Made by a program: the position numbers and the translations under genes. From a virus, in IMG/VR virus record IMGVR_UViG_3300029316_000009: DNA of 44,478 nt; one strand, 5' to 3'. A model generated the notes under the pieces. That model searched no databases. It was not told the origin of the DNA and saw only the letters and a list, made by a program, of their open reading frames with translations. Below, piece after piece: positions 737-41,557 of this stretch; within the stretch, counting starts at the first letter, position 1; every line of letters starts with the position of its first letter.

Positions 737-1906
737 TTGCACCAGTATATCATCTCTGAGATCGTATCACGGATGATGGCAAGAATCGGCAGGGGCGAGG
801 ACTATATTCTGACCAATGCTGATGCGTGGAGAATCAGAACGTTACAGGAATCCGGTGAACTGTTAGAAGACATTCTGGCAGAACTATCCAGATACACCAA
901 ACGTGAGCAACAAGAGCTTCTTGAAGCGTTTGAAGATGCCGGAATCACTGCAATGGAGTATGATGATAAGGTATATAAGGCGGCAGGATTAAGTCCTGTG
1001 CCGCTTGAACAGTCACCAACAATGATAAGACTCATGGAACGAAATATGCTTGCGACCATGGGTGAGTGGAAGAACTTCACACGGACAACCGCAAGTGCCG
1101 CTCAGAGGCTATATATCGAACAATGCGACCTTGCATATAACCATGTGATGACTGGTGCAGTTGGGTATACGCAAGCCATTAAAGAGGCAGTTAACAACGT
1201 TGTGAGTGATGGTGTTACCGTCACATATCCATCTGGTAGAAAAGACACGATTGAAACAGCGGTTGCACGTTCTGTCAGAACTGGTGTGGCACAGGCTACG
1301 GGGGATATATCCCTGAAGCGCATGGAAGAAATGGACTGGGATTTAGTTCTGGTTAGTGCTCACATTGGAGCCAGAACGGGTGACGGCGGTCAGAATCCGG
1401 GAAACCACTCATGGTGGCAAGGAAAGATATACTCTCGTTCTGGCAAGAGTAAGAAATTTCCGCCATTCTCATTGACCGGATACGGGACAGCAAGCGGACT
1501 GTCAGGGGTCAACTGTCGGCATAGCTTCGGAGCCAGTGATGGAGAATTTAATCCCTATGCGGAATTATCAGCACAGGACAAAGCCGACAAAGGCAAACAG
1601 TACGAAAAAGAACAGCGGCAACGTACTTATGAGCGAAGAATCCGCAAAACGAAGAGAGAGGTTCTTGGGCTGCAGGCAGGAGTCGACAATGCACCGAATG
1701 AAAAGGCAAAATTCGCATTGCAGCAAGACCTTGACCGGAAGTCTTATCTTTTACAGAAACAAAATGCTGCATATAAAGATTATTGCAAACGGAATGGCCT
1801 GAGGGAACTACAAGACCGACTTATGATCGCTAAGTGGAACCGCCAGAACGCCGCTAAAGCCAGAGGAGCGGCAAGACGATATAAGACAGCAAAGGGGATT
1901 GACTGA
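737..1906 (+). CDS. Minor capsid / head morphogenesis protein (Sfi11-type minor capsid protein 2, SPP1 gp7-like role)
   Basis: It sits right after the portal and carries the motifs SAHIGARTGDGG..HSWWQGKIY and GLSGVNCRHSF. The frame is open from 671 and a strong SD AGAGGTGA lies at 663-670, so the true start is probably upstream of the TTG at 737. Confidence 0.75.
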   Translation: MHQYIISEIVSRMMARIGRGEDYILTNADAWRIRTLQESGELLEDILAELSRYTKREQQELLEAFEDAGITAMEYDDKVYKAAGLSPVPLEQSPTMIRLMERNMLATMGEWKNFTRTTASAAQRLYIEQCDLAYNHVMTGAVGYTQAIKEAVNNVVSDGVTVTYPSGRKDTIETAVARSVRTGVAQATGDISLKRMEEMDWDLVLVSAHIGARTGDGGQNPGNHSWWQGKIYSRSGKSKKFPPFSLTGYGTASGLSGVNCRHSFGASDGEFNPYAELSAQDKADKGKQYEKEQRQRTYERRIRKTKREVLGLQAGVDNAPNEKAKFALQQDLDRKSYLLQKQNAAYKDYCKRNGLRELQDRLMIAKWNRQNAAKARGAARRYKTAKGID

Positions 1907-2295
1907 TGGATAGATGGGAATATTTCAATCCGAATCCTGTTAAGGATAAGAGAACAGGAGATTGCGTTGTCCGGGCAATATGCAAAGCAACCGGGTTCGA
2001 CTGGGAAACGGTATTCACCGGATTAATGATACAGGCGTGCACTCTGTCAGATATGCCAAGTGCAAATTATGTCTGGGGAGCGTACCTCTATAAGCGTGGA
2101 TACAGACGCAAACTGATTGAACAATCAGAACGATATATCTATACAGTCAACGACTTTTGTGCAGATCATCCGACCGGCACGTACATTCTCTGCATAGATG
2201 GCCATGTTGTGACGGCACAAGACGGCAAATATTTCGATACATGGGATAGCGGTAATGAAATCCCGGTATATTACTGGGAAAAGGAGAATAAATGA
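1906..2295 (+). CDS. Papain-like cysteine peptidase-fold protein (putative)
   Basis: Ordered candidate catalytic residues: Cys in RTGDCVVRAI, His in IDGHVVTA, Asp in FDTWDSG. The start overlaps the minor capsid stop (TGATG). Confidence 0.45.
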   Translation: MDRWEYFNPNPVKDKRTGDCVVRAICKATGFDWETVFTGLMIQACTLSDMPSANYVWGAYLYKRGYRRKLIEQSERYIYTVNDFCADHPTGTYILCIDGHVVTAQDGKYFDTWDSGNEIPVYYWEKENK

Positions 2296-2597
2296 GCATA
2301 TCAGAATTTATACAGATTTTCCTCTCTATCTGCGGAGGAGTGTCCATTGTCGGAGGGGCGGCAGCCGTAATCTTTAAGTGGATTACACCAGCATTCCGAC
2401 TTAATAAGCGAGTAGAAACACTGGAAGAACACGACAAGCGTGACTTTGAGAGTCTTCAGAGGATTGCAGAGCGAGATTCATTAATTCTGGAAGTGTTATC
2501 AACCATGCTGGACAGCCAGATTAGTGGGAATAATGTAGAAGAATTAAAAAAAACAAAACAGAAGCTTACAAATTATCTTGCACAGAATCAGCGTTAA
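2292..2597 (+). CDS. Membrane-anchored coiled-coil protein (hypothetical)
   Basis: N-terminal hydrophobic helix (FIQIFLSICGGVSIVGGAAAVIF) followed by a charged helical region. AAGGAG RBS. Confidence 0.6.
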   Translation: MSISEFIQIFLSICGGVSIVGGAAAVIFKWITPAFRLNKRVETLEEHDKRDFESLQRIAERDSLILEVLSTMLDSQISGNNVEELKKTKQKLTNYLAQNQR

Positions 2598-2614: not shown

Positions 2615-2821
2615 ATGCTCATGAAATTATATGTGTTCACTAAGAAAGATATAGACAGATTCTTGATAGAGTGTAATTTTACACCGGACGAAGAAAGACT
2701 GTTCCGGATGAGATGTCAGGAACGCACTCTCGAATACTGTGCTGAGCAGATGAATGTGAGCATATCCACGGCGAAACGATTGAGCCGGAGGGTAAACAAT
2801 AAAATAATTAAAGTGTGCTGA
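2615..2821 (+). CDS. Small sigma-70 region-4-like HTH DNA-binding protein
   Basis: FTPDEERLFRMRCQERTLEYCAEQMNVSISTAKRLSRRV resembles a sigma region 4 / LuxR-type HTH. The likely real start is the second ATG at 2621. Confidence 0.55.
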   Translation: MLMKLYVFTKKDIDRFLIECNFTPDEERLFRMRCQERTLEYCAEQMNVSISTAKRLSRRVNNKIIKVC

Positions 2822-2900: not shown

Positions 2901-2982
2901 ACCTAAATTATTTAGGTGTGAATTGAAAAGTGTTTATTGTTAGTAGGACACAAAAAAGAGGTAAATTTATACCTCTTTTTTT
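2901..2982 (+). ncRNA. Candidate small RNA of about 80 nt (orphan promoter-to-terminator unit)
   Basis: The predicted start is near 2901. There is a 5' hairpin ACCTAAAT-T-ATTTAGGT (2901-2917) and a 3' terminator AGAGGTA/TACCTCT (2957-2976) plus T6. No ORF with an RBS lies inside. Confidence 0.4.
2957..2982. terminator. Bidirectional rho-independent terminator
   Basis: The stem 2957-2963 / 2970-2976 is flanked by A6 upstream and T6 downstream. It also lies directly after the stop of the minus-strand 2981-3298 gene. Confidence 0.75.
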
Positions 2983-3298
2983 AATCCACATAATACAATT
3001 CTATTGGCTCACTATTTTTAAATAAAATATGGTATGCTCCAGAAAATACAACTGTTGAAAAATTAATAGCTGCGTTTTCGTCCCAAGAATACTTGCTTTC
3101 TTCAAAACTCTTGTCAGAAGAATTTTCGATCATATTTTCCACATAATCTTTTATAGGGTCTTCATCATCTTCTGTCCATTCTTCCGAGTATTCACATTGA
3201 AATTGTTCTTTGCATACTTCGTAAATCGGTTCTTTTGTCCCCTCATTGTAACTCTGGGACATTGTAATCTCGTGATAATATATTTTTTTCATGTTCAT
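2981..3298 (-). CDS. Highly acidic small protein (about 103 aa), unknown function
   Basis: GGAGG precedes the second ATG, giving a likely start at 3292. D/E-rich runs such as EEWTEDDEDPIKDYVENMIENSSD. It has its own consensus promoter with operator repeats. Confidence 0.75.
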   Translation of the reverse strand: MNMKKIYYHEITMSQSYNEGTKEPIYEVCKEQFQCEYSEEWTEDDEDPIKDYVENMIENSSDKSFEESKYSWDENAAINFSTVVFSGAYHILFKNSEPIELYYVD

Positions 3299-3352: not shown

Positions 3353-3398
3353 ATTATACATCTATGTGCGTTATATGTCAAGCGTATATGTGCGTTAT
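3353..3398 (-). promoter_or_regulatory. Consensus promoter of the acidic-protein gene with two operator repeats
   Basis: On the minus strand, TTGACA (3376-3381), 17 nt, TATAAT (3353-3358). Plus-strand repeats TCTATGTGCGTTAT (3361-3374, in the spacer) and TATATGTGCGTTAT (3385-3398, just upstream of -35). Confidence 0.7.
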
Positions 3399-3400
3399 TT

Positions 3401-3580
3401 TTATTTTTTTTCTAGCCTGTTGAGTTCTGACAGAACAACATCTCGAATAAAGGCACTATTACTCTTGCCGAGGTCGAGCTTTTCAATCCTCTCTTTAGTT
3501 CCTTTTGGAAAGACAATGTTTAGTCTATAGTTATTGTTCTCATACTTTCTTACCGCTTTTTTCTGTGCTTCTGTTGCCAT
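3401..3580 (-). CDS. Ribbon-helix-helix (Arc/CopG-like) DNA-binding protein, 59 aa
   Basis: MATEAQKKAVRKYENNNYRLNIVFPKGTKERIEKL..SNSAFIRDVVLSEL fits the RHH beta-alpha-alpha pattern. AAGGAGGG RBS. The longer track ORF (to 3631) runs into the promoter. Confidence 0.75.
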   Translation of the reverse strand: MATEAQKKAVRKYENNNYRLNIVFPKGTKERIEKLDLGKSNSAFIRDVVLSELNRLEKK

Positions 3581-3602
3581 GTTAATCCCTCCTTTTTCCT
3601 CA

Positions 3603-3631
3603 ATTATAAATCTATGTGCGTTATTGCACAA
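3603..3631 (-). promoter_or_regulatory. Promoter of the RHH gene carrying the same operator
   Basis: On the minus strand, TTGTGC (3626-3631), 17 nt, TATAAT (3603-3608). The third copy TCTATGTGCGTTAT (3611-3624) sits in the spacer, at the same relative position as in the 3353-3381 promoter. Confidence 0.65.
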
Positions 3632-3708
3632 TACTTTTTTGAGACTTTTTTGAACTTTTTAGATTGATACATCTATGCAAAAATATAATCAGAAAGGTGG
3701 TGCATAAG

Positions 3709-4179
3709 ATGGCATTATATAACAATCCTTATCAATATAGTTTTGGCGTTCCGGGGCAAATGAATCAATTTCAGCAGCAACCTGTCCAGATGCCAGTTCA
3801 ACCAGTACAGCAACCCCAACAGAATAACAATGGTATTTTGTGGGTGTCTGGCGAAGTCGGCGCAAAATCCTATCTGGTAGCACCCGGGACAAGCGTTTTA
3901 CTGATGGACAGTGAGAGCGAAAAGTTCTACATAAAATCCACAGATGTATCCGGCATGCCGCAGCCACTGCGAACATTTGAATACCACGAGATAGGCTCTC
4001 AGATGCCGCCTAAACAGCCTGTTCAGAACATGGACAGTAAATATGTCACCAGACAGGAATATGACGATTTAAAGGGCAAATACGAAGCTATCATAAACCG
4101 ATTAAATTCATTTTCTGAACCTGTTAGAACTAATACTGTACAGGAGCCAGCAATCAAGGGAGGAAATGCAGATGAGTAA
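3709..4179 (+). CDS. Q/P-rich hypothetical protein (156 aa)
   Basis: AAAGGTGG RBS before the ATG at 3709. N-terminal QQQPVQMPVQPVQQPQQNNN low-complexity tract, then a globular segment. TATAAT at 3684-3689. Confidence 0.7.
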   Translation: MALYNNPYQYSFGVPGQMNQFQQQPVQMPVQPVQQPQQNNNGILWVSGEVGAKSYLVAPGTSVLLMDSESEKFYIKSTDVSGMPQPLRTFEYHEIGSQMPPKQPVQNMDSKYVTRQEYDDLKGKYEAIINRLNSFSEPVRTNTVQEPAIKGGNADE

Positions 4180-4393
4180 TCCATTATTTAACGCACTTGG
4201 CGGTGGGATGACACAGGGAAATGGGCCAATGCAGATGATGCAGCAGTTTATGCAGTTTAAACAGAATTACAAAGGAAACCCAAAAGAAGAAGTCCAGAAA
4301 ATGTTGCAGTCTGGAAAGATTTCTCAACAGCAGCTTAACCAAGTTCAGCAGATGGCAGGGCAGTTTCAGAATCTGCTGAAAGGAATGAAATAG
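4166..4393 (+). CDS. Q/M-rich small hypothetical protein
   Basis: GGAGG RBS. The likely start is the second ATG at 4172 (MSNPLFNALGGG...), which overlaps the upstream stop. Confidence 0.65.
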   Translation: MQMSNPLFNALGGGMTQGNGPMQMMQQFMQFKQNYKGNPKEEVQKMLQSGKISQQQLNQVQQMAGQFQNLLKGMK

Positions 4394-4447
4394 TACATTA
4401 CAATCTGGCCAGATTGATGTAAATACACAATAAAGGAGATTATAACT

Positions 4448-5227
4448 ATGGATGGAAATTATAGCTTAGCAGACATTGCCGCTGCTACTGGAAATGGCAG
4501 AAATAATGACGGCATGTTTGGTGGAGATGGTGCATGGTGGCTTATCGTGCTTTTCTTGTTCGTATTCTGCGGATGGGGAAACAACGGATGGGGCAATAAC
4601 GGCAATGGCGGCGGATATGCAGCCACAGCAGCTACTCAAGCAGACATTCAGAGAGGATTTGATAACTCCGCAGTAATCAGCAAACTTGACGGAATCAATA
4701 GCGGCCTGTGTGATGGCTTTTATGCCATGAATAACGGTATGCTTACCGGATTCAATGGAATCAACACAAACATCATGCAGACCGGCTTTGGAATCCAGCA
4801 GGCAATCAATGCCGATACTGTAGCCAATATGCAGAATACAAACGCATTGCAGGCGCAGCTTGCAAACTGCTGTTGTGAAACCAGGGAAGCTATCCAGGGC
4901 GTGAACTACAACATGGCGCAGAACACCTGTGCATTGCAGAACACCATGAACAGCAACACAAGAGATATCATTGACAATCAGAATGCTGGAACCAGAGCGG
5001 TTCTTGATTACCTGTGTGCAAAAGAAAACGCAGATTTAAGAGATAAAGTTCAGAAACTTGAGCTTGCTGCTTCTCAGTCTGCGCAGAATGCTTACATTGC
5101 GGCAAATCAGGAAGCGCAGACGGCAGAACTGATTCGCAGAATAAGTCCTATGCCTGTGCCATCCTACGTAGTCCCAGCGCCATATCCATATTCTGGATGC
5201 GGATGCAACACCGGATGTAATTGCTGA
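4448..5227 (+). CDS. Membrane-anchored N/Q/G/C-rich protein with a Cys-rich C-terminal tail (259 aa)
   Basis: AAGGAG RBS. TM segment AWWLIVLFLFVFCGWG flanked by Gly/Asn repeats (GWGNNGWGNNGNGGG), then a long N/Q/A-rich region with CCC and spaced Cys. It ends PAPYPYSGCGCNTGCNC. Confidence 0.75.
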   Translation: MDGNYSLADIAAATGNGRNNDGMFGGDGAWWLIVLFLFVFCGWGNNGWGNNGNGGGYAATAATQADIQRGFDNSAVISKLDGINSGLCDGFYAMNNGMLTGFNGINTNIMQTGFGIQQAINADTVANMQNTNALQAQLANCCCETREAIQGVNYNMAQNTCALQNTMNSNTRDIIDNQNAGTRAVLDYLCAKENADLRDKVQKLELAASQSAQNAYIAANQEAQTAELIRRISPMPVPSYVVPAPYPYSGCGCNTGCNC

Positions 5228-5291
5228 TAACTTCATATCGAGAGTATCTTTCGATTGATTCGGATGTCGGCTTATGCCGTTTTACACAGAG

Positions 5292-5316
5292 GGGCAGGCT
5301 GAGACCTGTCCTTTTG
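5292..5316 (+). terminator. Rho-independent terminator
   Basis: GGGCAGG (5292-5298) pairs with CCTGTCC (5305-5311, one G-U pair), followed by TTTT. Confidence 0.6.
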
Positions 5317-5338
5317 TGATATGAAAGGGGTAAAAATT

Positions 5339-5761
5339 ATGGCAGAATTTACAAATGTAGCTGCTCAGACTGTAGCAGCAAATGGAAACGTAGTATTTTC
5401 AAACACAGCAGTCAAAGGTTCTAACTGTATTCAGCACAGAGAGGGAAGTGGAATTATAACTCTAAGAGGACTGACTAATCAGTGCAAAGCGAGATTCTTT
5501 GTGGATTTTTCTGGTAATATCGCAATTCCAACAGGCGGTACTGTTGAAGCTATTTCTCTGGCTATTGCAATCTCTGGCGAACCGGTTCTTTCTTCTCAGA
5601 TGATTTCCACACCGGCAGCAGTAGACCAGTATAACAATGTGTCCTCTGGCATCTATATTGATGTACCTCGCGGATGTTGCGTTAATATCGCAGTAGAGAA
5701 TACAAGCGATCAGGCAATTTCTGTTGCGAACGCAAATATTGTCGTGACCAGAGAAGCATAG
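5339..5761 (+). CDS. Beta-rich hypothetical protein, possibly a BclA-C/C1q-TNF-like jelly roll
   Basis: The ATG at 5339 follows AAAGGGG. The alternating hydrophobic beta pattern (NVVFSNTAV..IITLRG..ARFFVDFSGNIAI..IYIDVPRGCCVNIAVEN..ANIVVT) resembles exosporium BclA/BxpB C-terminal domains. This rests on pattern memory only. Confidence 0.6.
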   Translation: MAEFTNVAAQTVAANGNVVFSNTAVKGSNCIQHREGSGIITLRGLTNQCKARFFVDFSGNIAIPTGGTVEAISLAIAISGEPVLSSQMISTPAAVDQYNNVSSGIYIDVPRGCCVNIAVENTSDQAISVANANIVVTREA

Positions 5762-5772
5762 GAGGTGTGATT

Positions 5773-6327
5773 ATGAGAGACATTAAAGACTTATGTGCAA
5801 GAATTGAAGACGAACTGTCCAAAATCGCTGACAGTGGGTTGACTACTGGAAATCTGGAAATGACATACAAGCTGATTGATATGTACAAAGATATAAAGAA
5901 CACACAGTACTGGGACAAGAAAGTGGAGTATTACAACACTGTCCTTGATGAGATGCGTAGCGGATACAATGACGATTACAGCGAGCGTGGAAGAAAACAT
6001 GACAGCATGGGGAGATACAGCTCAAGTGACGGCAGAATGATGCCAGATTACGACCGGGGCAATTCTTATGCCAGACGTGGTGAACATTATGTCAGAGAGC
6101 ATTACAGCCGCTCTGATGGGCGAGACGCTTACGATGACTACATGACGCAGAAACAGAGCTATCGTTCCGAAAAATCTGAGGACTGCAAAAGAAAGATGCT
6201 TGCCGCTCTGGAAGAACATCTGGACGAACTCACAACAGAAATGAGCGATATGTCCAAGGACGCAGAATGCCGGGAAGAACGTGATCTTGTTAAGAGATAC
6301 GTTGAGAAATTAAGAAATATGCTTTGA
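5773..6327 (+). CDS. Hypothetical protein with helical ends and an R/D/S/Y-rich low-complexity centre
   Basis: GGAGG lies 7 nt before the ATG at 5773. The central tract is GRYSSSDGRMMPDYDRGNSYARRGEHYVREHYSRSDGRDAYDDY. Confidence 0.7.
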   Translation: MRDIKDLCARIEDELSKIADSGLTTGNLEMTYKLIDMYKDIKNTQYWDKKVEYYNTVLDEMRSGYNDDYSERGRKHDSMGRYSSSDGRMMPDYDRGNSYARRGEHYVREHYSRSDGRDAYDDYMTQKQSYRSEKSEDCKRKMLAALEEHLDELTTEMSDMSKDAECREERDLVKRYVEKLRNML

Positions 6328-6376: not shown

Positions 6377-6662
6377 CTTGCAAGGAATGGTGAACCTTGT
6401 AGGGCTTGCTGATTAGAAGTTTTTGCTTTCTTTTTCGTTTCATGTCCTCCTTTCTTTGCGAATATGCCCTTAAGAGAAACAGATGAAGCAGATTTGAGCG
6501 GAATCTGGAGGTTGAAAAGCGGATGCAATTTCCGGCATATTCATTAGTCAGTTTGACTGACTGGTAACACCTCCTCATGAATAAAACAACATCTCCGTGG
6601 AAGTCGGATAGTGGCAGGCATAACACGATAAATACCTTGCTAACCCGGGAATCCGGGTTAAT

Positions 6663-6735
6663 GGAAATATAGCTCTAGTGGTAGAGCAATATCCGCATAG
6701 GATATTGGTTAGGGGTTCGATTCCCCTTATTTCCT
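6663..6735 (+). tRNA. tRNA with CAU anticodon (Met or Ile2-type), atypical anticodon loop
   Basis: Manual fold: acceptor GGAAATA/TATTTCC, D arm GCTC-TAGTGGTA-GAGC, anticodon arm ATATC-CGCATAG-GATAT, variable TGGTT, T arm AGGGG-TTCGATT-CCCCT. No encoded CCA. Position 33 is G instead of the near-universal U. Confidence 0.7.
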
Positions 6736-6810: not shown

Positions 6811-7443
6811 ATGCAGAAACTTATTGACACATTAAAATCATTTGGAATTGAAATCCCGGAGGACAAACAGGCAGATATAAAGAAAGCACTTTCTGAGAAT
6901 TACAAGAATGCAAAGGAAGTTGCAAAAACTCTGTCAAAAGTTGAGGGAGAACGAGACGACTGGAAAGAACGCGCAGAGACAGCAGAAAAGACCCTGAAAG
7001 GTTTTGATGGTATCGACCCGGCGAACATTCAGACAGAGCTTGCTGGATGGAAGAAGAAAGCTGAGGACGCAGAGAAAGAATTCAATGCAAAAATCTACGA
7101 CCGTGATTTCTCAGACGCTCTGAAAGCGGCACTCGACGATGTTAAGTTTTCCAGCGAAGCAGCTAAGAAGTCAGTCATGGCAGACATTAAAGAAGCCGGA
7201 TTGAAACTGAAAAACGGTAAAATCCTTGGGCTGAATGATCTGATTGAGCAGATGAAACAGTCTGACGCATCCGCTTTCGTGGATGAATCTCAGCAGCAGG
7301 CTCAGCAGAATCAGGCAAGGTTTACTACTCATGTTGGACAGCAACAGACACCGGGAAGCATGACAAAGAAAGATATCGAAGCGATCAAAGACCCGTCCGA
7401 GAGGCAGGCTGCAATTGCTCAGAATATCCAGTTATTCCAGTGA
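6811..7443 (+). CDS. Scaffolding protein (GP20-type)
   Basis: It sits immediately upstream of the major capsid gene. Charged coiled-coil sequence (KVEGERDDWKERAETAEKTLKGF...) and a strong RBS. Confidence 0.8.
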   Translation: MQKLIDTLKSFGIEIPEDKQADIKKALSENYKNAKEVAKTLSKVEGERDDWKERAETAEKTLKGFDGIDPANIQTELAGWKKKAEDAEKEFNAKIYDRDFSDALKAALDDVKFSSEAAKKSVMADIKEAGLKLKNGKILGLNDLIEQMKQSDASAFVDESQQQAQQNQARFTTHVGQQQTPGSMTKKDIEAIKDPSERQAAIAQNIQLFQ

Positions 7444-7518: not shown

Positions 7519-8688
7519 ATGCCAGCAAAAACAAATCTTATTATGACTAATGATATTCATGTCACAGCACGTGAGATTGACTTTGTTACCAGATTCGAAA
7601 GAAACTGGCAGCACTTACGTGATATTCTGGGTATCATGAGACCTATCAAAAAACAGCCGGGTGCTGTGCTTAAGTCCAAGTACGCAGAGGGCACTTTACA
7701 GAGTGGACTTGTCGGTGAGGGTGAGGAAATCCCTTACAGCAAGTTTACTGTAAAAGAAAAGACCTATGCGGAAATGACTATTGAGAAATACGCAAAGGCT
7801 GTATCTATCGAAGCAATCAAGGATCACGGTTATGAGAACGCTGTTCAGATGACTGATGATGAATTCCTTTTCCAGCTTCAGACCAATGTTACTGAAAGAT
7901 TTTACGACTATCTGAAAACAGGTACCCTCACATTTACAGAAACTACTTTCCAGATGGCTTTGGCAATGGCCAAGGGTCGGGTTGAGAACAAATTCAAACA
8001 GATGCACAGAAATGTGACTGGTGTTGTTGGATTTGTCAACATTCTGGACGTATATGAATACCTCGGAGCAGCTGAGATCACTATCCAGAATCAGTTCGGA
8101 TTCCAGTACATGAAAGATTTCATGGGCTTCAACACCATCTTCCTGTTATCCGAAAAGGAAATTCCAAGAGGAACAGTTATCGCTACCCCTGTTGAGAACA
8201 TCGTACTGTACTATGTTGACCCGAATGAATCTGACTTTGCAAGAGCAGGTCTTGTATACACCGTATCTGGTGAGACAAACCTGATCGGATTCCACACACA
8301 GGGCAACTATCACACAGCAGTATCCGAAGCATTCGCAATCATGGGACTTACCCTCTTTGCAGAGTACATTGATGCTATTGCTGTTGGAACCATCAACACA
8401 ACTCAGACGCTTGGAACTCTGACTGTAAACTCCACAGCAGGAAGTAAAAGTGGAGATACTAAAGTGACCATCATTCCGGCAAAAGCGAGCGCAGGAAATG
8501 TGTATAAGTACAAGGTTGCATCTTCTGAGACTGCCGTAGACTACGGACAGAATGTGAAGAACTGGAGCGCGTGGGATGGTGAATCCGACATTACAGCAAC
8601 AACAGGACAGGTAATCACAGTGGTTGAATGTGACAGCACCTATAAGGCGCTGAGCGCAGGACATGCGACTGTAGCAGCAAAACCATAA
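7519..8688 (+). CDS. Major capsid protein with a C-terminal Ig-like extension
   Basis: Position after the scaffold gene, a size of 389 aa, and an N-terminus (REIDFVTRFERNWQHLRDILGI) typical of A118/Sfi11-type capsid proteins. The last roughly 90 aa are beta-rich. Confidence 0.85.
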   Translation: MPAKTNLIMTNDIHVTAREIDFVTRFERNWQHLRDILGIMRPIKKQPGAVLKSKYAEGTLQSGLVGEGEEIPYSKFTVKEKTYAEMTIEKYAKAVSIEAIKDHGYENAVQMTDDEFLFQLQTNVTERFYDYLKTGTLTFTETTFQMALAMAKGRVENKFKQMHRNVTGVVGFVNILDVYEYLGAAEITIQNQFGFQYMKDFMGFNTIFLLSEKEIPRGTVIATPVENIVLYYVDPNESDFARAGLVYTVSGETNLIGFHTQGNYHTAVSEAFAIMGLTLFAEYIDAIAVGTINTTQTLGTLTVNSTAGSKSGDTKVTIIPAKASAGNVYKYKVASSETAVDYGQNVKNWSAWDGESDITATTGQVITVVECDSTYKALSAGHATVAAKP

Positions 8689-9203: not shown

Positions 9204-9377
9204 ATGAATAAAGTAATGTGCTTTTTAACTGGCGGGCATAAATTCAAAAGTCCTGCTGAATCAAAATGCAATGGCAAAGAAAAGACTTGTACCATTACGG
9301 AAACTTGCTGTAAATGTGGAAAACAGTTTTCATTTACAGGTACATACAAACAGTTTGGTATTCCAGATATGAGGTGA
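9204..9377 (+). CDS. Small Cys-rich protein (57 aa)
   Basis: ATG at 9204 and TGA at 9375-9377. It contains C..C and CCKCG motifs and is below the track cut-off. Confidence 0.4.
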   Translation: MNKVMCFLTGGHKFKSPAESKCNGKEKTCTITETCCKCGKQFSFTGTYKQFGIPDMR

Positions 9378-9382
9378 AAATT

Positions 9383-9652
9383 ATGGATATTTCAACATTA
9401 GGCTCATGTATAGCAATCGTTATGATTTGCTATATCGTAGGAATGGGCTGCAAAGCATCAAAAAGAATCTCAGATGAATGGATTCCGGTGATCATGGCAG
9501 TTATTGGTGGAATTCTCGGAGCTGTCGGAATGGGAGTTATCCCGGACTTTCCGGCATCAGATTATATCACAGCAGTTGCGGTCGGTATGTTTAACGGGCT
9601 GTCGGCAACCGGCGTGAATCAGGTTATTAAGCAGACAGTGCAGAAAGAATAA
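9383..9652 (+). CDS. Holin-like three-TM protein (Hol118 / Phage_holin_1-like)
   Basis: 89 aa from the ATG at 9383 with three hydrophobic segments. EWIPVIMAVIGGILGAVGMG and AVGMFNGLSATGVNQVIKQ resemble the Listeria A118 holin pattern (KWLPTVSILIGAILGA...GLFEQ). Confidence 0.6.
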   Translation: MDISTLGSCIAIVMICYIVGMGCKASKRISDEWIPVIMAVIGGILGAVGMGVIPDFPASDYITAVAVGMFNGLSATGVNQVIKQTVQKE

Positions 9653-21258: not shown

Positions 21259-21298
21259 AAAATGTGGGGCTGAAATTCACAATTGCTCGCTGTATCAT
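21259..21298 (+). promoter_or_regulatory. Putative late promoter box AAAATGTGGGG upstream of the endolysin gene
   Basis: The 11-mer at 21259-21269 matches the boxes at 6334 and 41009. TATCAT lies at 21293-21298. Confidence 0.45.
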
Positions 21299-21327
21299 GT
21301 ACTTATCAATATGAAAGGAATGATATA

Positions 21328-22332
21328 ATGAGCAAATTACAGGAATTTTTAAACCTTGGTGATTATTACGCATCCAACGGCGGGTACCTTGAAAAGAAAA
21401 GTAATGCCTATCTGGATGATTTTAAAAAGAATGTAGGATACAACAACTATACCAAATTTGCACGTGATGTAAATTCCTGGGGGCAACCAGGATGCCAGGG
21501 GCAGCCGTGGTGTGCAGAGTACCAGTTTTGGAAATTGGTGAAAATCCTAGGAATCACAAAAGCCTTACAGATTATGGGTGGAGGTTTTTACAATTGTGTA
21601 TCAATCACTAATTGGGCTAAGAAAAAAGGTACTTGGCACAATGCTCCAAAGGTAGGTGCGCTTGTAATCTTCCGAAATGGCTCCCATGTGGCTGATATTC
21701 AGAGTTTTGATAGCTCGAGAATCTATACAAATGAAGGAAATACCTCTAGCGCGTCTGGTGTGGTGGCAAATGGCGGAGCGGTTCGCAATAAATCCTACTC
21801 CATCAACGATTCAGCAATAGACGGATATGTTTGGATTGATTGGGAAACCTACGAAAGTACCGCAACCTGGAAAAAAACAGGAACCAGAGTGGCGACTGTG
21901 AATGATTTATGCGTACGCGAGACACCGAATGGATATGTAATGGGTTCCATTGATAAAGATACTGTTGTTGATATTGATGGAAAGACAAGCGGAAAGTGGA
22001 CGCATGTAAAAGTTTCCGGTATCGGTATTGGCTGGATCTGGACTGGATATCTGGCAAAGGAGGGTGGCCCCGCATCCGCTACCATTACAGGAAAACAGGA
22101 CAAGACACAGGTGCTTTTCAAGGGGAATGTAACCGCCACTGTGCTTAATGTGCGTACCTGGGCTGGAACTGAGTACCCGAACATCAAAAAATATCCAACT
22201 CTTAACCAGGGAAATGAAGTGGAGGTAATGAATTTTACCCAGAAAGATAAAAACGGCAGCAAATGGTATTATATCTGTATCGCAGGAAAGTATTATGGCT
22301 TTGTATCTGCAAAATATGTTAAGAAACAGTAA
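21328..22332 (+). CDS. Endolysin: CHAP amidase/peptidase domain plus two SH3-like cell-wall-binding domains
   Basis: Cys motif GQPWCAEY, His motif NGSHVADI and NEGNTS. There are two C-terminal SH3b-like repeats. The ATG at 21328 follows GAAAGGA. Confidence 0.85.
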   Translation: MSKLQEFLNLGDYYASNGGYLEKKSNAYLDDFKKNVGYNNYTKFARDVNSWGQPGCQGQPWCAEYQFWKLVKILGITKALQIMGGGFYNCVSITNWAKKKGTWHNAPKVGALVIFRNGSHVADIQSFDSSRIYTNEGNTSSASGVVANGGAVRNKSYSINDSAIDGYVWIDWETYESTATWKKTGTRVATVNDLCVRETPNGYVMGSIDKDTVVDIDGKTSGKWTHVKVSGIGIGWIWTGYLAKEGGPASATITGKQDKTQVLFKGNVTATVLNVRTWAGTEYPNIKKYPTLNQGNEVEVMNFTQKDKNGSKWYYICIAGKYYGFVSAKYVKKQ

Positions 22333-22422: not shown

Positions 22423-23997
22423 TTAATTATTCTTCTGGATTTTTGGGAAAATATCTAGCTGGAAACCAATCTCGTTGCCTTTCCCATAAGCGTTTTTAGT
22501 ATCTTTTGAGTAGGCAACCTTTTCAATCAAACTTTTAAGCATTTTATTCTTGGATTCTGTGTCAAGGCTCCAATAGTTATCAAGTAGCTCTTCACAGCGC
22601 GGGATAAAATCCGACTGTTGTTTTATAATGTTCTCGTAATGTTTGATTTCTTCTTTTAATTTTTCTATAGTATCGGAGCATGACTGGATAGATGCAGATA
22701 TTGTTTTGGCACGTTCAAGGAAAACCTCAGTGGTATAGATACCCTGTTCGAGTAGGTCATATTGTTTTGCTTTTTGGGCGTTTAAGCTTTCCAGCTCGTT
22801 TTCTTTTTCATGTATGAGATTTTGTTTAGAAATTATTGTTAAATCAATAGCCTGTGAAGATGTATTAATATCATTGTTTAACTTATATTTCTCCACAATC
22901 TCCCTAATTCCATCAAGCACAGCTTTTTCAACCAGAGATAACTTGCTGCTCACTGTGGGGCAAGACGTATATGGACACATGAGGGTATCTTCCTGCCCGC
23001 GCTTTTGATAAGGGCGGCGAACCATGGCGCGACCACATTTGCTGCAATAGACAATTCCGGCAAGTGGATTACGAATCGAGTTTGCTATACTAACTGGGCG
23101 AGGCGGGTTCTTTTTTCGTATTTCCTGGACGGAATTATACAGATCTTCTGATATAACAGCCGGATGTAATCCATTACAAATAAGAGTATCTTTTGATCGT
23201 GGGCGTGTCTTAATTACTTGACCAGTCTGTATAGTCTTCACTGTTTTTCTCCCATTCCATCGGATTTTCCCGATGTATACCGGATTTGTCAGAATTCCCT
23301 GTATACTGGCAGGAGTCCAGTCACCGCCCAGTGCAGATTCTATTCCCATTTCATTTAATTTCCGTGCAATCTTCGCAACTCCGATTTGTTCGCAGCCATC
23401 ACCGGCATACCAGGTGTAGATCATTTTTACAATCTCAGCTTGAGTCGGAACAGGTCGGAGAGTATAGCCTTTTTCTTTTTCGAGCTTAACTCTTTCGTAT
23501 CCGTAAGGTGGTTTGTTGCCGCAATACTTACCCTCTTTTACCGATGAGATTCTTCCGGCGTTCAGTCGGCGCTTGATGGTTTTATACTCTCTGCGGCTCA
23601 TAAATAGACCAAACTCAAAATATTCTTCATCAAATTCATTGTTTGGATCATATATTTTTGTGGGGGTAATAATTTTCGTGTCAGAATACTGGAAAGCCCT
23701 TGACACAATGCCTTGGTCAATAGTATCACCTCTGGCAAGTCGTTCAACTTCCACAACCAGAACTCCATCCCACATACCGGATTCTACCTCATGTAGAAGC
23801 TGCTGCATAACAGGACGGTCGGCGATAGTTTCTCCAGATACCACTTCGCGGTAAATTGCGCCCACAATGTACTCTTTTTTCTTTGCAAGATCTAACAGGA
23901 TCCGTTCATGTCTGGCGAGTGTTTCGCCCTCTCCGTGCGCTTCAGCTTCCCGATCGGCCCTGGATTTCCTTAGATAGATGCATACTGATTCATTCAT
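22423..23997 (-). CDS. int: Large serine recombinase (integrase)
   Basis: N-terminal resolvase domain (YLRKSRADRE with the catalytic Ser context, VVEVERLARGD), a recombinase domain, a Cys-rich zinc ribbon (CSKCG..CPYTSC) and a C-terminal coiled coil. 524 aa. Confidence 0.9.
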   Translation of the reverse strand: MNESVCIYLRKSRADREAEAHGEGETLARHERILLDLAKKKEYIVGAIYREVVSGETIADRPVMQQLLHEVESGMWDGVLVVEVERLARGDTIDQGIVSRAFQYSDTKIITPTKIYDPNNEFDEEYFEFGLFMSRREYKTIKRRLNAGRISSVKEGKYCGNKPPYGYERVKLEKEKGYTLRPVPTQAEIVKMIYTWYAGDGCEQIGVAKIARKLNEMGIESALGGDWTPASIQGILTNPVYIGKIRWNGRKTVKTIQTGQVIKTRPRSKDTLICNGLHPAVISEDLYNSVQEIRKKNPPRPVSIANSIRNPLAGIVYCSKCGRAMVRRPYQKRGQEDTLMCPYTSCPTVSSKLSLVEKAVLDGIREIVEKYKLNNDINTSSQAIDLTIISKQNLIHEKENELESLNAQKAKQYDLLEQGIYTTEVFLERAKTISASIQSCSDTIEKLKEEIKHYENIIKQQSDFIPRCEELLDNYWSLDTESKNKMLKSLIEKVAYSKDTKNAYGKGNEIGFQLDIFPKIQKNN

Positions 23998-26627: not shown

Positions 26628-27377
26628 ATGAAGAAATTTGAATTAACATCAGAAACCAAAATTAACATTTTCGGAAAGAAACTTTTCCGAATCAAGGCGC
26701 TCGTTTCATTTGGAGTTGTAAAAACTGGAGAAACTGGCGGATGGGTAGAAAAAGAAGAAAATGTAAACCAGTCCGGCGATGCATGGGTGTTCGGCAATGC
26801 AGAGGTGTTCGGCAATGCAAGGGTGTCCGGCGATGCAGAGGTGTTCGGCAATGCAAGGGTGTCCGGCAATGCAAGGGTGTCCGGCAATGCAGAGGTGTTC
26901 GGCAATGCAGAGGTGTTCGGCAATGCAAGGGTGTCCGGCGATGCATGGGTGTTCGGCAATGCAAGGGTGTCCGGCGATGCATGGGTGTTCGGCAATGCAG
27001 AGGTGTTCGGCAATGCAGAGGTGTTCGGCGATGCAAGGGTGTTCGGCAATGCAGAGGTGTCCGGCAATGCAAGGGTGTCCGGCGATGCAGAGGTGTTCGG
27101 CAATGCAAGGGTGTCCGGCAATGCAAGGGTGTTCGGCAATGCAGAGGTGTTCGGCAATGCAGATTACACAACTATTCGTGGATTCGGTACTCAATTCCGC
27201 ACAACTACATTCTTCAGATGCAAAGACAAACAAGTTAAAGTGTCTTGCGGCTGCTTCTATGGAACAATTCCAGAGTTCCGTGAACAGGTGAAAAATACCA
27301 GAAAAGGCAAAATCGCCGAAGAATACTTGATGATTGCCGATCTCATGGAGAAACATTTTGCAGAAGAAGCAAAATAG
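26628..27377 (+). CDS. Hexapeptide-repeat (left-handed beta-helix-type) protein with a conserved Cys-containing C-terminal domain
   Basis: AGAGGAGG RBS. 21 consecutive G-[ND]-A-x-V-[FS] units, an N-terminal FGVVKTGETGGWVEKEENV lead-in and a C-terminal VSCGCFYGTIPEFREQV domain. Confidence 0.85.
   Translation: MKKFELTSETKINIFGKKLFRIKALVSFGVVKTGETGGWVEKEENVNQSGDAWVFGNAEVFGNARVSGDAEVFGNARVSGNARVSGNAEVFGNAEVFGNARVSGDAWVFGNARVSGDAWVFGNAEVFGNAEVFGDARVFGNAEVSGNARVSGDAEVFGNARVSGNARVFGNAEVFGNADYTTIRGFGTQFRTTTFFRCKDKQVKVSCGCFYGTIPEFREQVKNTRKGKIAEEYLMIADLMEKHFAEEAK
26775..27170. repeat. 18-bp tandem repeat, 21 full units plus one partial
   Basis: The units follow GGC-[A/G]AT-GCA-[GAG/AGG/TGG]-GTG-T[T/C]C, read directly from the sequence. 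All six frames are open across the array. Confidence 0.95.
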
Positions 27378-41110: not shown

Positions 41111-41557
41111 ATGCCAATGGGAAAACCGCCCATGTATAAAACGGTGGATGAAATTGAAAAAAAAATCGAAAAATATTTTGAGGATTGTAAAGGATATCCT
41201 TTGACTGATAGCAAAGGCAAACAAATGTTTAATAAATTCGGGTCTCCCGTTTTTGTAGACGTTCACCCTCCGACCGTTACAGGACTTGCTCTGGCCCTTG
41301 GATTTACAAGCAGACAGGCTCTTTTAAACTATCAAGCAAAACCAGAGTTTGTTGACACGATTACGCGCGCGAAAGCCAGAGTGGAACAGTACGCAGAGGA
41401 AAGACTATTTGATCGTGACGGTTCAAATGGCGCTCAGTTTAGTCTTAGAAACAACTTCAAGGGTTGGGACGCTGACAAGAAAAATGATGATTTCGGAGAC
41501 GGAAAGATTACGATTGTGAACAATATTCCAAGACCGGAGAAACAGGATGGAAAGTAA
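41111..41557 (+). CDS. terS: Terminase small subunit
   Basis: PPTVTGLALALGFTSRQALLNY....I.RAKARVEQYAEERLF....GAQFSLRNNFKGW is the terS HTH family pattern. GGAGGTGA RBS. Confidence 0.8.
   Translation: MPMGKPPMYKTVDEIEKKIEKYFEDCKGYPLTDSKGKQMFNKFGSPVFVDVHPPTVTGLALALGFTSRQALLNYQAKPEFVDTITRAKARVEQYAEERLFDRDGSNGAQFSLRNNFKGWDADKKNDDFGDGKITIVNNIPRPEKQDGK

Follow-up and report, generated by a model that had tools for sequence, protein, structure and literature searches.

A conserved gene unit of gut Clostridia phages as a candidate mobile accessory cassette

Genes and features of the locus

The window, i.e., the whole 44,478-nucleotide stretch of viral DNA analysed in this study, belongs to a temperate phage, as it carries a serine recombinase gene. 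Five intact plus-strand genes, hereafter A to E, are located between the minor-capsid and scaffold genes, at the positions and on the strand originally described. These genes, two companions and two nucleotide signals are:

1906..2295, plus strand: g1906, 129 aa, papain-like Cys-His-Asp arrangement; predicted peptidase or transglutaminase-like protein
2615..2821, plus strand: g2615, 68 aa, helix-turn-helix, sigma-70 region-4-like; possible cassette regulator
3684..3689, plus strand: TATAAT, −10-like hexamer upstream of A, read directly
3709..4179, plus strand: A, 156 aa, with a Q/P-rich N-terminal tract, a beta-rich conserved domain and a C-terminal helix; core cassette member
4166..4393, plus strand: B, 75 aa, helical, Q/M-rich
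4448..5227, plus strand: C, 259 aa, predicted single-pass membrane protein; signature gene of the cassette
5287..5318, plus strand: stable hairpin in the C/D intergenic region, which may act as an attenuator, a terminator or an RNA-stability element
5339..5761, plus strand: D, 140 aa, in the AF2 model a stand-alone jelly roll of TNF/C1q type like those of BclA_C and ExsFA-BxpB
5773..6327, plus strand: E, 184 aa, R/D/S/Y/G-rich low-complexity core between a helical N-terminal and a helical C-terminal segment

The five genes had been taken as the content of the minor-capsid/scaffold interval. They are present, but the interval holds five further genes: 1906-2295, 2292-2597 and 2615-2821 on the plus strand, and 2981-3298 and 3401-3631 on the minus strand. 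Genes 1906-2295 and 2615-2821 accompany the cassette in many relatives, whereas 2292-2597 does so in only 6 loci. The gap 3′ of E is not empty either, as it contains a RAGATH-21 RNA (6459-6543) and a tRNA-Met (6663-6735).

The cluster had also been credited with its own −10 element and an internal terminator. The TATAAT hexamer is present, but no good −35 hexamer precedes it and the promoter scan is silent. Similarly, the C/D intergenic hairpin is very stable (the 61-nt segment 5270-5330 folds at −28 kcal/mol, z −5.6 compared to shuffles), but it is not listed by the terminator scan, because the U-run sits in the 3′ arm and leaves no free U-tail. At least 7 relatives share, upstream of A, a hairpin or T-run with TATGnnAAAATATAAT after it. 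This combination was rejected as a cassette-specific promoter: it has 86 plus-strand matches in 1.29 Mb, only 7 of which precede A, and no TATGnnAAAATATAAT promoter motif is claimed since the degenerate pattern matches AT-rich DNA everywhere. No convincing sporulation-type promoter (sigmaE or sigmaK) was seen by eye upstream of A. There is some indication that the cassette is partly autonomous in its transcription.

The unusual composition of the five proteins was confirmed by comparison with the head proteins of the window: A contains 12% Q and 9% P, B 23% Q and 13% M, C 13% N, 11% G and 11 Cys, and E 12% D, 10% R and 9% Y, while D is beta-rich with 4 Cys. None of the five matched Pfam or NCBIfam, and the statement that they resemble no standard virion, lysis or replication family held in Pfam, NCBIfam and the PDB. 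However, each matches its own PHROG of non-annotated function with E-values of 1e-27 to 1e-62 (A, phrog_21718, 2e-38; B, phrog_22984, 3e-27; C, phrog_16490, 2e-60; E, phrog_28802, 9e-62); A to E are therefore real conserved genes and not chance open reading frames.

Conservation, position and exchange of the cassette

The five genes had been regarded as a coherent set whose co-occurrence in other phages should be checked. Dozens of loci from a variety of phage backbones retain the gene order, and A, a small gene at the B position and C are found together in 76–83 of 83 related loci. C is present in all 83, A in 76, E in 58 and D in 47. The B family was detected in 40 loci, and elsewhere the same slot is occupied by an unassigned open reading frame of 75–97 aa, so that some small gene always separates A from C; the Clostridium perfringens phages also have a B-like gene. 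After A-B-C, D and E usually come next, or unrelated proteins, D2 and DUF7841 proteins, take their place. D is replaced by an unrelated protein, D2, in about one third of the loci and is absent in some; the DUF7841 proteins found in place of E have likewise R/D/Y/G-rich tracts. D2 as a divergent D and DUF7841 as a divergent E were both rejected: hhalign finds no relationship in either pair, and these proteins are therefore replacements rather than divergent copies. A literature search on DUF7841, RAGATH-21, the C. perfringens phage genes and phage-borne exosporium proteins returned nothing. The companion g1906 adjoins the cassette in 47 of the 83 loci, either before A or after E, and is missing from many cassettes, including those of the C. 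perfringens phages and of the crAss-like phage cr109_1; g2615 homologues adjoin it in 35 loci. The commonest layouts are 'g1906 A B C D E' and 'g2615 g1906 A B C D E'. The unit is hence one of five to seven genes, consisting of A, a small B-type protein and C, then exchangeable partners.

The cassette occupies at least five genomic contexts with its internal order retained. It lies (i) in the minor-capsid/scaffold interval of the head module, in the window and in four related loci (L020, L029, L041 and L055); (ii) after the lysis genes, either behind tail fibre, holin and Amidase_2 and just before integrase and cI (L019 and L021) or at the prophage–host junction in a Vescimonas fastidiosa isolate; (iii) at the end of the late operon in a large phage with PolIII-alpha, NrdD and YonG; (iv) among early, replication and recombination genes in the early region of the C. 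perfringens phages HMD-PC1 and 17DYC; and (v), in cr109_1, beside a holin and a LysB-like gene in the tail/structural block. It is found most frequently behind the endolysin, with the integrase or host DNA as its neighbour: endolysin-type domains are encoded upstream in at least 12 loci, while 14 loci have an integrase downstream and several others have host genes there. A location inside the head module, presented originally as the defining trait, is thus the less common situation. The original prediction had named matches to phage head proteins as evidence against itself, and none was found for A to E in Pfam, the annotated PHROGs or the PDB (scaffold, decoration, minor-capsid and protease families). 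As they match no such family and their position varies among five contexts, A to E were rejected as head morphogenesis proteins; the diversity of contexts argues for a mobile accessory cassette rather than a part of the head machinery. In most contexts the cassette is co-oriented with the late genes, which leaves room for late (virion-type) expression.

Exchange of the cassette is evident from MT837318, the scaffold of which is 95% identical to that of the window while A, C and D are only 39%, 27% and 28% identical, respectively. These data show that strongly diverged versions of the cassette replace one another while the flanks stay almost identical. The sole match in the search for plasmid carriage is a prophage on a Vescimonas chromid. 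PADLOC assigned none of the 10 proteins in or beside the cassette to a known anti-phage defence or exclusion system. The cassette resembles the lysogenic-conversion genes (morons) that temperate phages of Firmicutes carry between their lysis genes and attachment site in its mostly post-endolysin position next to the integrase or host DNA, in having its own regulator-like gene and promoter-like region, and in being exchanged between otherwise similar phages. However, it differs from morons by its five to seven genes in conserved order, with no toxin, enzyme or known exclusion gene, and by turning up within structural or early regions as well, and in one crAss-like phage.

Properties of the cassette proteins

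C has more than 8000 close relatives. In public data its family counts 2136 clusters at 50% identity, and close relatives of the window protein are found on many human-gut phage contigs. Family members are uniform in length (230–330 aa), and this range offers no gene fusion hinting at function. The protein comprises a conserved acidic N-peptide (SLADIAAxTGN…GG), a WW-containing hydrophobic segment with Gly-rich tracts on both sides, and a long N/Q/A-rich helical domain in which a CCC is invariant, before ending in a Cys-rich tail; the peptides originally quoted for it, GDGAWWLIVLFLFVFCGWGNNGWGNNG and the tail PYPYSGCGCNTGCNC, are both present. The hydrophobic segment is strong, of transmembrane type and kept across the family, with a net flanking charge of −2.8 on the N-side and −0.6 on the C-side. 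The alignment profile of C gave no significant match against PDB sequences. A weak match to Pfam phage_tail_N was obtained (E 0.006), and the crAss-like phage homologue is annotated as 'outer capsid protein/viral fiber'. The proposed link to the YjcZ sporulation proteins did not survive: residues ~24–57 of C do share with them the succession of a Gly-rich tract, a hydrophobic segment and a second Gly-rich tract, but TIGR01732 gave no match at E ≤ 1 to any of the 38 C-family members. Moreover, C has about five times the length of YjcZ proteins (less than ~50 aa) and contains a large helical domain that is conserved and rich in Cys. Membership of the YjcZ family was therefore rejected.

By contrast, the BclA/BxpB-type jelly roll predicted for D is borne out by structure prediction. 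The AF2 monomer model (pLDDT 91, pTM 0.85) is an all-beta TNF-like jelly roll of ~130–140 residues, and its best Foldseek matches in the PDB are F-BclA-CTD, ExsF, BxpB, ExsFA and BclA-CTD (E 5e-7 to 2e-5, TM 0.67–0.77); EDA and C1q are also among the top matches, all of which have probability 1.0. The model further resembles the short tail fibre of cyanophage A-1(L) (TM 0.69), and against BFVD it matches the fibritin whisker, C1q/collagen proteins and S74 tail fibres, the fold being common in viral fibres. At the sequence level, the BclA_C HMM (PF18573) gave a mixed outcome: 9 of 45 D relatives match it weakly (best E 5.5e-5), but D of the window does not at E ≤ 1, and the alignment profile of D has no significant match among PDB sequences. 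As judged from sequence, D is a remote relative of BclA_C and not a member of the family under Pfam's rule. Like ExsFA/BxpB, D stands alone, at ~140–170 aa and with no collagen stalk. It differs from these Bacillus exosporium proteins in being phage-encoded, in a sequence identity of only 12–16%, and in having no collagen-like partner, exosporium leader or ExsY/CotY-type neighbour.

A has a conserved domain pattern (…WVxGExxAKxYLVAPNxTVxLxDS…YxK…G.P) and no match in Pfam, NCBIfam or, using a profile built from its alignment, the PDB; the E profile likewise found no match among PDB sequences. No signal peptide was seen by eye at the N-termini of A, B, D and E, the presumed cytosolic partners of C, and the composition/hydropathy scan gave no strongly hydrophobic 19-residue N-terminal window in any of them.

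The g1906 protein has five invariant residues, D19-C20, R23, H100 and D111, of which C20, H100 and D111 are invariant in alignments of 42 and 60 sequences. In its AF2 model (pLDDT 92.8), the Cys lies at a helix N-terminus and the His and Asp on adjacent strands. It has no match in Pfam or, with its alignment profile, among PDB sequences, and Foldseek against the PDB returned only weak, non-significant matches, the best of them papain-like proteins: Josephin-2 (E 0.34, TM 0.39), Tae4, MCF and USP5. From the invariant residues and the order of secondary structures, g1906 is predicted to be a papain-like peptidase or a transglutaminase-like protein. Its model recalls papain-like enzymes that cleave leader peptides or cross-link coat proteins, such as the bacteriocin C39 peptidases, YabG and Tgl, by an invariant Cys at a helix start and a His and an Asp on the following strands; it differs from them in the lack of a significant sequence or fold match. 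Some cassette proteins also recall substrates of such enzymes: the N-terminal peptide of C, ending in G-G/N, is presumably comparable to the double-glycine leaders cleaved by C39 peptidases, and A and B are Q-rich, as are Tgl substrates. For g2615, the match to Pfam Sigma70_r4 (E 0.006) is below the curated cut-off.

Possible roles of the cassette

Our preferred reading, which we put forward tentatively, is that A to E form the centre of an accessory cassette, self-contained and horizontally mobile, that is carried by gut Clostridia phages and encodes a membrane-tethered, envelope-altering assembly and not head morphogenesis proteins. C would insert in the cytoplasmic membrane through its Gly-flanked hydrophobic segment, with its large helical Cys-rich domain probably facing the cytoplasm, a topology weakly indicated by the flanking charges. 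It would serve as stalk or platform for partners devoid of signal peptides, namely the Q-rich A and B, the TNF-fold D (a putative trimer) and the low-complexity E, and the papain-like g1906 may process or cross-link one of the components. The assembly would alter the envelope of the lysogen or infected cell, most likely as a weapon or shield in phage–phage or phage–host conflict, for instance through exclusion or through conversion of the surface; where the host forms spores, it could also reach the forespore. Among the families searched, no homologue of known function suggests an activity for A to E. Several points count against this reading: PADLOC recognised nothing, the cassette mostly runs in the direction of the late genes, known exclusion proteins are usually single small genes, unlike units of five to seven genes, and the D fold and the fibrous helical region of C also fit a virion fibre.

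A virion-associated fibre or decoration is a rather unlikely alternative, in which C would be a trimeric helical stalk, D a receptor- or glycan-binding TNF-fold head, while linkers or assembly chaperones would be provided by A, B and E. Such a set would decorate the head or tail and be exchanged between phages like host-range cassettes. The similarity of D to viral fibre tips, the weakly fibre-like character of C, the late-gene orientation in most loci, the location in the head block (window type) or tail/structural block (cr109_1), and the swapping of alleles between conserved flanks, which is typical of receptor-binding genes, are all consistent with it. It accommodates less well the conserved transmembrane-type segment of C, the frequent post-lysis position by attP/integrase or host DNA, the proximity of early and recombination genes in the C. 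perfringens phages, the dedicated regulator-like gene and promoter-like region, and the replacement or absence of D. We consider it quite improbable that the cassette serves a membrane-linked step of the lytic cycle, be it the timing or regulation of lysis or an anchor organising replication or assembly, as does the phi29 membrane protein p16.7, which organises phage replication at the membrane. Such a role would suit the N-terminal membrane segment of C followed by its long helical region, the position directly after holin and endolysin in many prophages (after holin and the LysB-like gene in cr109_1), and the location among replication and recombination genes in the C. perfringens phages. 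However, searches of Pfam, PHROGs and the PDB found nothing resembling holins, antiholins, spanins or p16.7-like proteins, and positional variety and allele swapping speak against a core lytic function.

The original prediction favoured a spore-surface role: a phage cassette made in the mother cell and adding exosporium- or coat-like material to the host spore, with D as the BclA/ExsFA-like part, C as a Cys-rich cross-linkable protein, A and B as Q-rich substrates, and the predicted transglutaminase- or protease-like g1906. The closest solved structures to D are indeed Bacillus exosporium proteins, with BclA_C matched by some relatives; the cassette is rich in Cys, Q/N and Y, the partners of C are without signal peptides, as are coat proteins, and positions typical of lysogenic conversion are occupied in carriers that are mostly Clostridia. 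In addition, the cassette prophages of L001 (Lachnospira intestinalis) and L050 abut a sigmaF/G-type sporulation gene truncated at the same residue, and these two insertions in a sporulation sigma-factor gene keep the spore-surface reading alive. This purpose is nevertheless weakened by the replacement or absence of D in many loci, by the occurrence of its fold in viral fibres, and by cr109_1, in which a full-length C homologue has a DUF7841 partner: cr109_1 belongs to the Crassvirales, whose hosts are Bacteroidota and do not sporulate, so that relatives of the signature gene reach phages of this phylum. Several carrier species are described as non-spore-forming. Further arguments against it are the YjcZ mismatch, the lack of a sigmaE- or sigmaK-type promoter upstream of A by eye, and the early-region location in the C. 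perfringens phages. The exosporium nap system (BclA with BxpB/ExsFA and ExsY/CotY) was rejected as a model, as A to E and their neighbours have no collagen, exosporium-leader or ExsY/CotY match. The role of the cassette is probably not spore-specific, because relatives occur in phages of bacteria that make no spores, and we regard the spore-surface reading as quite improbable. Also unlikely is an undescribed supramolecular assembly, borne by temperate phages of gut Clostridia, in which a membrane-tethered stalk, C, carrying a BclA/ExsFA-like head, D, would be nucleated by A and B, matured by the papain-like enzyme, and remodel the host surface including, in spore-formers, that of the developing spore.

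With more than 2000 clusters at 50% identity for C alone and its many human-gut contigs, the cassette is among the commoner gene sets of gut Clostridia phages that are still uncharacterised. Instead of being labelled as head genes, five PHROGs of 'unknown function' can henceforth share with two companions an annotation as a single, linked accessory cassette. A mobile, rapidly exchanged multi-gene unit combining a membrane anchor with an exosporium-type fold is a candidate new route by which prophages alter their hosts, with possible effects on the exclusion of other phages, on surface properties, or on spore properties that affect person-to-person transmission. If the envelope-remodelling assembly is real, lysogenic conversion that acts on the envelope of the cell or the spore would be widespread among bacteria of the human gut.

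Gene content and surroundings of the window cassette

Genes A to E, the central part of the cassette, were all recovered as plus-strand ORFs exactly where the original prediction had placed them, and the peptides that it quoted are present in the window. These five genes had been presented as the content between the minor capsid and scaffold genes; the five are there, but they are not alone, as three plus-strand and two minus-strand genes precede A. The region and the marker genes of the window, which is a complete temperate siphophage, are arranged as follows.

Features of the window
737-1906, Phage_min_cap2 protein, flanks the cassette region
1906-2295, plus strand, extra gene before A (companion gene g1906)
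2292-2597, plus strand, extra gene before A
2615-2821, plus strand, extra gene before A (companion gene g2615)
2981-3298, minus strand, gene before A
3401-3631, minus strand, gene before A
3709-4179, plus strand, A, 156 aa
4166-4393, plus strand, B, 75 aa
4448-5227, plus strand, C, 259 aa
5339-5761, plus strand, D, 140 aa
5773-6327, plus strand, E, 184 aa
6459-6543, RAGATH-21 RNA (RF03097), 80.5 bits against a gathering score of 70.3
6663-6735, tRNA-Met (CAT), in the ORF-free gap from E to the scaffold gene
6811-7443, Phage_scaffold protein, flanks the cassette region
7519-8688, major capsid protein, flanks the cassette region
21283-22332, CHAP+SH3 endolysin
22423-23997, minus strand, large serine recombinase
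41547-42803, large terminase

With the window's own head proteins as yardstick, the compositions claimed for the five proteins were borne out: A contains 12% Q and 9% P, B 23% Q and 13% M, C 13% N, 11% G and 11 Cys, and E 12% D, 10% R and 9% Y, while D is of beta type with 4 Cys. None of the five matched Pfam or NCBIfam. Each matched a separate PHROG of unknown function (E 3e-27 to 9e-62) and C has more than 8000 relatives in a collection of 5.8 billion proteins, and A to E are therefore not chance ORFs.

Of the two expression signals proposed for the cassette, the -10 element (TATAAT, 3684-3689) is present but lacks a good -35, and a consensus scan calls no promoter there; the internal terminator corresponds to a very stable hairpin at about 5287-5318 (-28 kcal/mol, z -5.6, for the enclosing 61 nt), but one without a free U-tail. 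Nor is the gap after E empty, as it contains the RAGATH-21 RNA and the tRNA-Met. As window-type relatives carry one or two tRNAs, RAGATH-21 (loci L081 and L029) or a skipping-rope RNA (L013) in the same gap, it constitutes a conserved small-RNA slot just 5' of the scaffold and capsid genes.

Close relatives differ in the slot that separates g2615 from A, where they carry other genes in place of the two minus-strand genes of the window. The 3401-3631 product is apparently a ribbon-helix-helix protein, as judged by its sequence pattern and by the Pfam RHH_3 match of its counterpart in a relative, and a perfect (12/12) sigma-70-type promoter at 3353-3381 on the minus strand is directed into 2981-3298. 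Elsewhere in the window, the major capsid protein bears a C-terminal S-layer SbsC-type Ig-like domain (E 3e-14), a holin-family gene (9314-9652; Phage_holin_5_2 matched in relatives) is located with the head-tail connector genes and a long way from the CHAP endolysin, and an early-region gene (26628-27377) encodes a 249-aa protein with YdcK beta-solenoid repeats and a bactofilin-type match (E 8e-7).

A conserved core and its partners

Using the signature gene C to scan one genome per species, we obtained 80 loci, nearly all from Clostridia (Lachnospiraceae, Oscillospiraceae and Acutalibacteraceae). Three close relatives were added for family counts, and ORFs were assigned with iterated HMMs: C occurs in 83/83 loci, A in 76, E in 58, D and g1906 in 47 each, B in 40 and g2615 in 35. 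In others, without a recognisable B, the slot is filled by an unassigned 75-97-aa ORF. Gene order is fixed. The most frequent layout, g1906 A B C D E, is seen in 13 loci and the next, g2615 g1906 A B C D E, in 8; a third layout has g1906 located after E. D is replaced in 29 loci by D2, an unrelated Cys-rich protein of 130-150 aa, and E in 13 loci by a DUF7841 (PF25223) protein, which likewise has an R/D/Y/G-rich tract; hhalign related neither D to D2 nor E to DUF7841. The fixed order and the exchangeable downstream partners thus define a core of A, B and C that is followed by a variable pair and often joined by the two companion genes. The coherent, unexplained system that had been proposed is real, and extends to seven genes and hundreds of phages.

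Two loci, L057 (7781-8985) and L059 (7736-9000), carry the variant A C D2 E g1906 with two membrane-protein genes just 5'. One product is an AgrB-like multi-pass membrane protein (PF04647, with 2 members in the neighbour scan, the attribution being a reading of the multi-pass sequences); the other joins a membrane domain at its N-terminus to what looks by eye like a helix-turn-helix at its C-terminus. This pair hints at peptide-signal-type regulation.

Judged by its sequence, C is far more than a low-complexity protein. Its family forms 2136 clusters at 50% identity, of uniform length (230-330 aa) and with no gene fusion among them, and almost all of the best 120 of its more than 8000 relatives are 258-259 aa long. 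Conserved elements are an N-terminal peptide, S-L-A-D-I-A-A-x-T-G-N…G-G, which we take to resemble a double-glycine leader; a WW-hydrophobic segment with Gly-rich tracts on either side; an invariant CCC; the stretches TRDIIDNQNAN and ASQxAQNAFITANQEAQTAELIRRL; and the tail CPVPAYVVPNP…CC…GCGCG. As the flank on the N-side of the hydrophobic segment is acidic (mean net charge -2.8) and that on the C-side about neutral, there is a weak indication that most of C lies on the cytoplasmic side of the membrane, in the compartment in which its partners, which lack signal peptides, are made. The suggested link of C to YjcZ proteins failed, TIGR01732 matching 0 of 38 C members at E <= 1.

Modelled from a 57-sequence alignment, D is predicted to be all beta (pLDDT 91, pTM 0.85), and its structure matches bear out the BclA/BxpB-type fold guessed from its sequence. 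The solved structures matched best were the F-BclA C-terminal domain of the F-ENA tip fibrillum (9h38; E 5e-7, TM 0.70-0.75), ExsF (9h3d), BxpB (8d02), ExsFA (7r1m; TM 0.75) and BclA-CTD (1wck; TM 0.67), with EDA/TNF and C1q lower down; a tail-fibre domain of cyanophage A-1(L) also matched (TM 0.69). In the published work on F-ENA, F-BclA-CTD is reported to be a TNF-like jelly-roll trimer and BclA_C is assigned to the TNF/C1q superfamily (PMC12357932). Among predicted viral structures, the best matches were stand-alone proteins of 130-145 aa from uncultured gut phages (TM 0.8-0.9), with giant-virus collagen/C1q proteins, a fibritin whisker and S74 tail fibres ranking lower. As spore-surface proteins and viral fibres both turn up among the matches, the fold is common to both. 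At the sequence level the window D did not match BclA_C, which was matched by 9 of 45 D relatives (best E 5.5e-5); D is distantly related in structure to BclA_C and ExsFA/BxpB but falls outside the Pfam family by sequence. The other exosporium components (collagen protein, leader, ExsY/CotY) are lacking here.

In g1906, D19-C20, R23, H100 and D111 are invariant, and in the model (pLDDT 92.8) C20 begins a helix while H100 and D111 sit on neighbouring strands, a papain-like arrangement. The fold search gave no significant match, its top entries (Josephin-2, Tae4, MCF, USP5) all being papain-like; we infer that g1906 may be a peptidase or transglutaminase-like protein. The other companion, g2615, weakly matched Sigma70_r4 (E 0.006). 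A has a conserved beta-rich domain in addition to a Q/P-rich tract and a helix, B is helical and Q/M-rich, and E has helical ends around an R/D/S/Y/G-rich core; the profiles of A and E matched no solved structure. PADLOC gave no match for ten proteins within or adjoining the cassette.

Genomic positions and block exchange

The cassette occurs in at least five contexts. It lies between minor capsid and scaffold genes in the window, its close relatives, L020, L029, L041 and L055. In L019 and L021 the genes before it encode a giant tail protein, small holin-like proteins and an Amidase_2 endolysin, and an opposite-strand tyrosine integrase and cI-type repressor lie directly 3'; the isolate Vescimonas fastidiosa MM35 has tail, holin and amidase genes followed by A, B, C, D and two small genes, beyond which host genes begin (lactate permease, ldh, miaB, mutL, mutS). 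A third context is the late-operon end of a larger phage with DNA polymerase III alpha, NrdD, dUTPase and a YonG-like gene. The C. perfringens phages HMD-PC1 and vB_CpeS-17DYC carry A, a B-like gene, C and D2 between an antirepressor and a group of Gam, recombinase, ThyX and SSB genes. Finally, the tail gene block of crAss-like cr109_1 (Crassvirales, recoded TAG) contains, after genes annotated holin and LysB-like, a DUF7841 protein and a full-length C homologue (E 2e-32 against the profile) with the WW-hydrophobic segment, CCC motif and Cys-rich tail.

The cr109_1 pair (L089/L091; NC_055892 48398-50019) reads through in-frame TAG codons in both genes. Their published names, 'RNA polymerase sigma factor/ubiquitin-like protein' for the DUF7841 protein and 'outer capsid protein/viral fiber' for the C homologue, look like weak-similarity labels.

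When the two nearest genes per side were pooled over about 60 loci, the downstream side showed Phage_integrase in 14 loci, a scaffold gene in 6 and, in several, host genes (MnmE, DnaB, HPr and others). On the upstream side, at least 12 loci had endolysin-type domains (Amidase_2 in 6, CHAP, NlpC/P60, M23, Amidase_3, glucosaminidase, holins) and 4 had minor capsid. From these counts, the commonest site is the classic slot for lysogenic-conversion genes, which the cassette resembles in position and behaviour, and not the head module in which it had been framed.

The cassette is exchanged as a block between phages. In MT837318, the scaffold is 95% and the minor capsid protein 65% identical to those of the window, whereas the intervening cassette belongs to a distant allele, in which A, C and D are 39%, 27% and 28% identical, with an extra gene and without g1906. 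Such a swap is typical of genes under diversifying selection (receptor binding, exclusion, counter-defence) and atypical of core morphogenetic parts.

In two loci the cassette adjoins a sigmaF/G-type sporulation sigma factor of which the C-terminal two-thirds is left (L001 8374-8862 and L050 8434-9126, both minus strand). Both are truncated at an identical residue, (V)PMIIGEI…, and the fragment in L001 aligns with sigmaF residues 88-242 of 1L0O (E 9e-42). These prophages appear to be integrated inside the sigma-factor gene, which we liken to the skin element in sigK.

Proposed role of the cassette

Our leading, still tentative reading is that the cassette proteins form an assembly on a C-anchored membrane platform that alters the envelope of the lysogen or infected cell. 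C would be anchored in the membrane, and its helical Cys-rich domain would be the platform that carries A, B, D and E. The papain-like g1906 may process the conserved N-peptide of C or, alternatively, cross-link the Q-rich partners.

A virion fibre or decoration would account for D's fold, for the resemblance of C to fibre proteins, for the co-orientation with late genes and for the allele swapping, but sits poorly with the membrane segment and with positions after lysis genes and in an early region, and we regard it as rather unlikely. The spore-surface purpose originally proposed is conceivable, given the nearest structures of D, the composition, the Clostridia hosts and the insertions in the sigma gene; it is nevertheless not the best reading, and indeed an improbable one, as a homologue occurs in a crAss-like phage, D is lost from many loci and the YjcZ test failed. 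That the cassette serves a lytic-cycle step linked to the membrane is improbable as well, and the remaining probability falls to some other explanation.

Taken together, these data show a linked, mobile and rapidly exchanged unit around a membrane protein, without similarity to virion, lysis or replication proteins. No published account of it was found in the literature and no described conversion, exclusion or defence system shares its make-up; for these reasons we consider the cassette to be of a kind so far undescribed, new as a clearly coherent, uncharacterised unit and not as a demonstrated mechanism.
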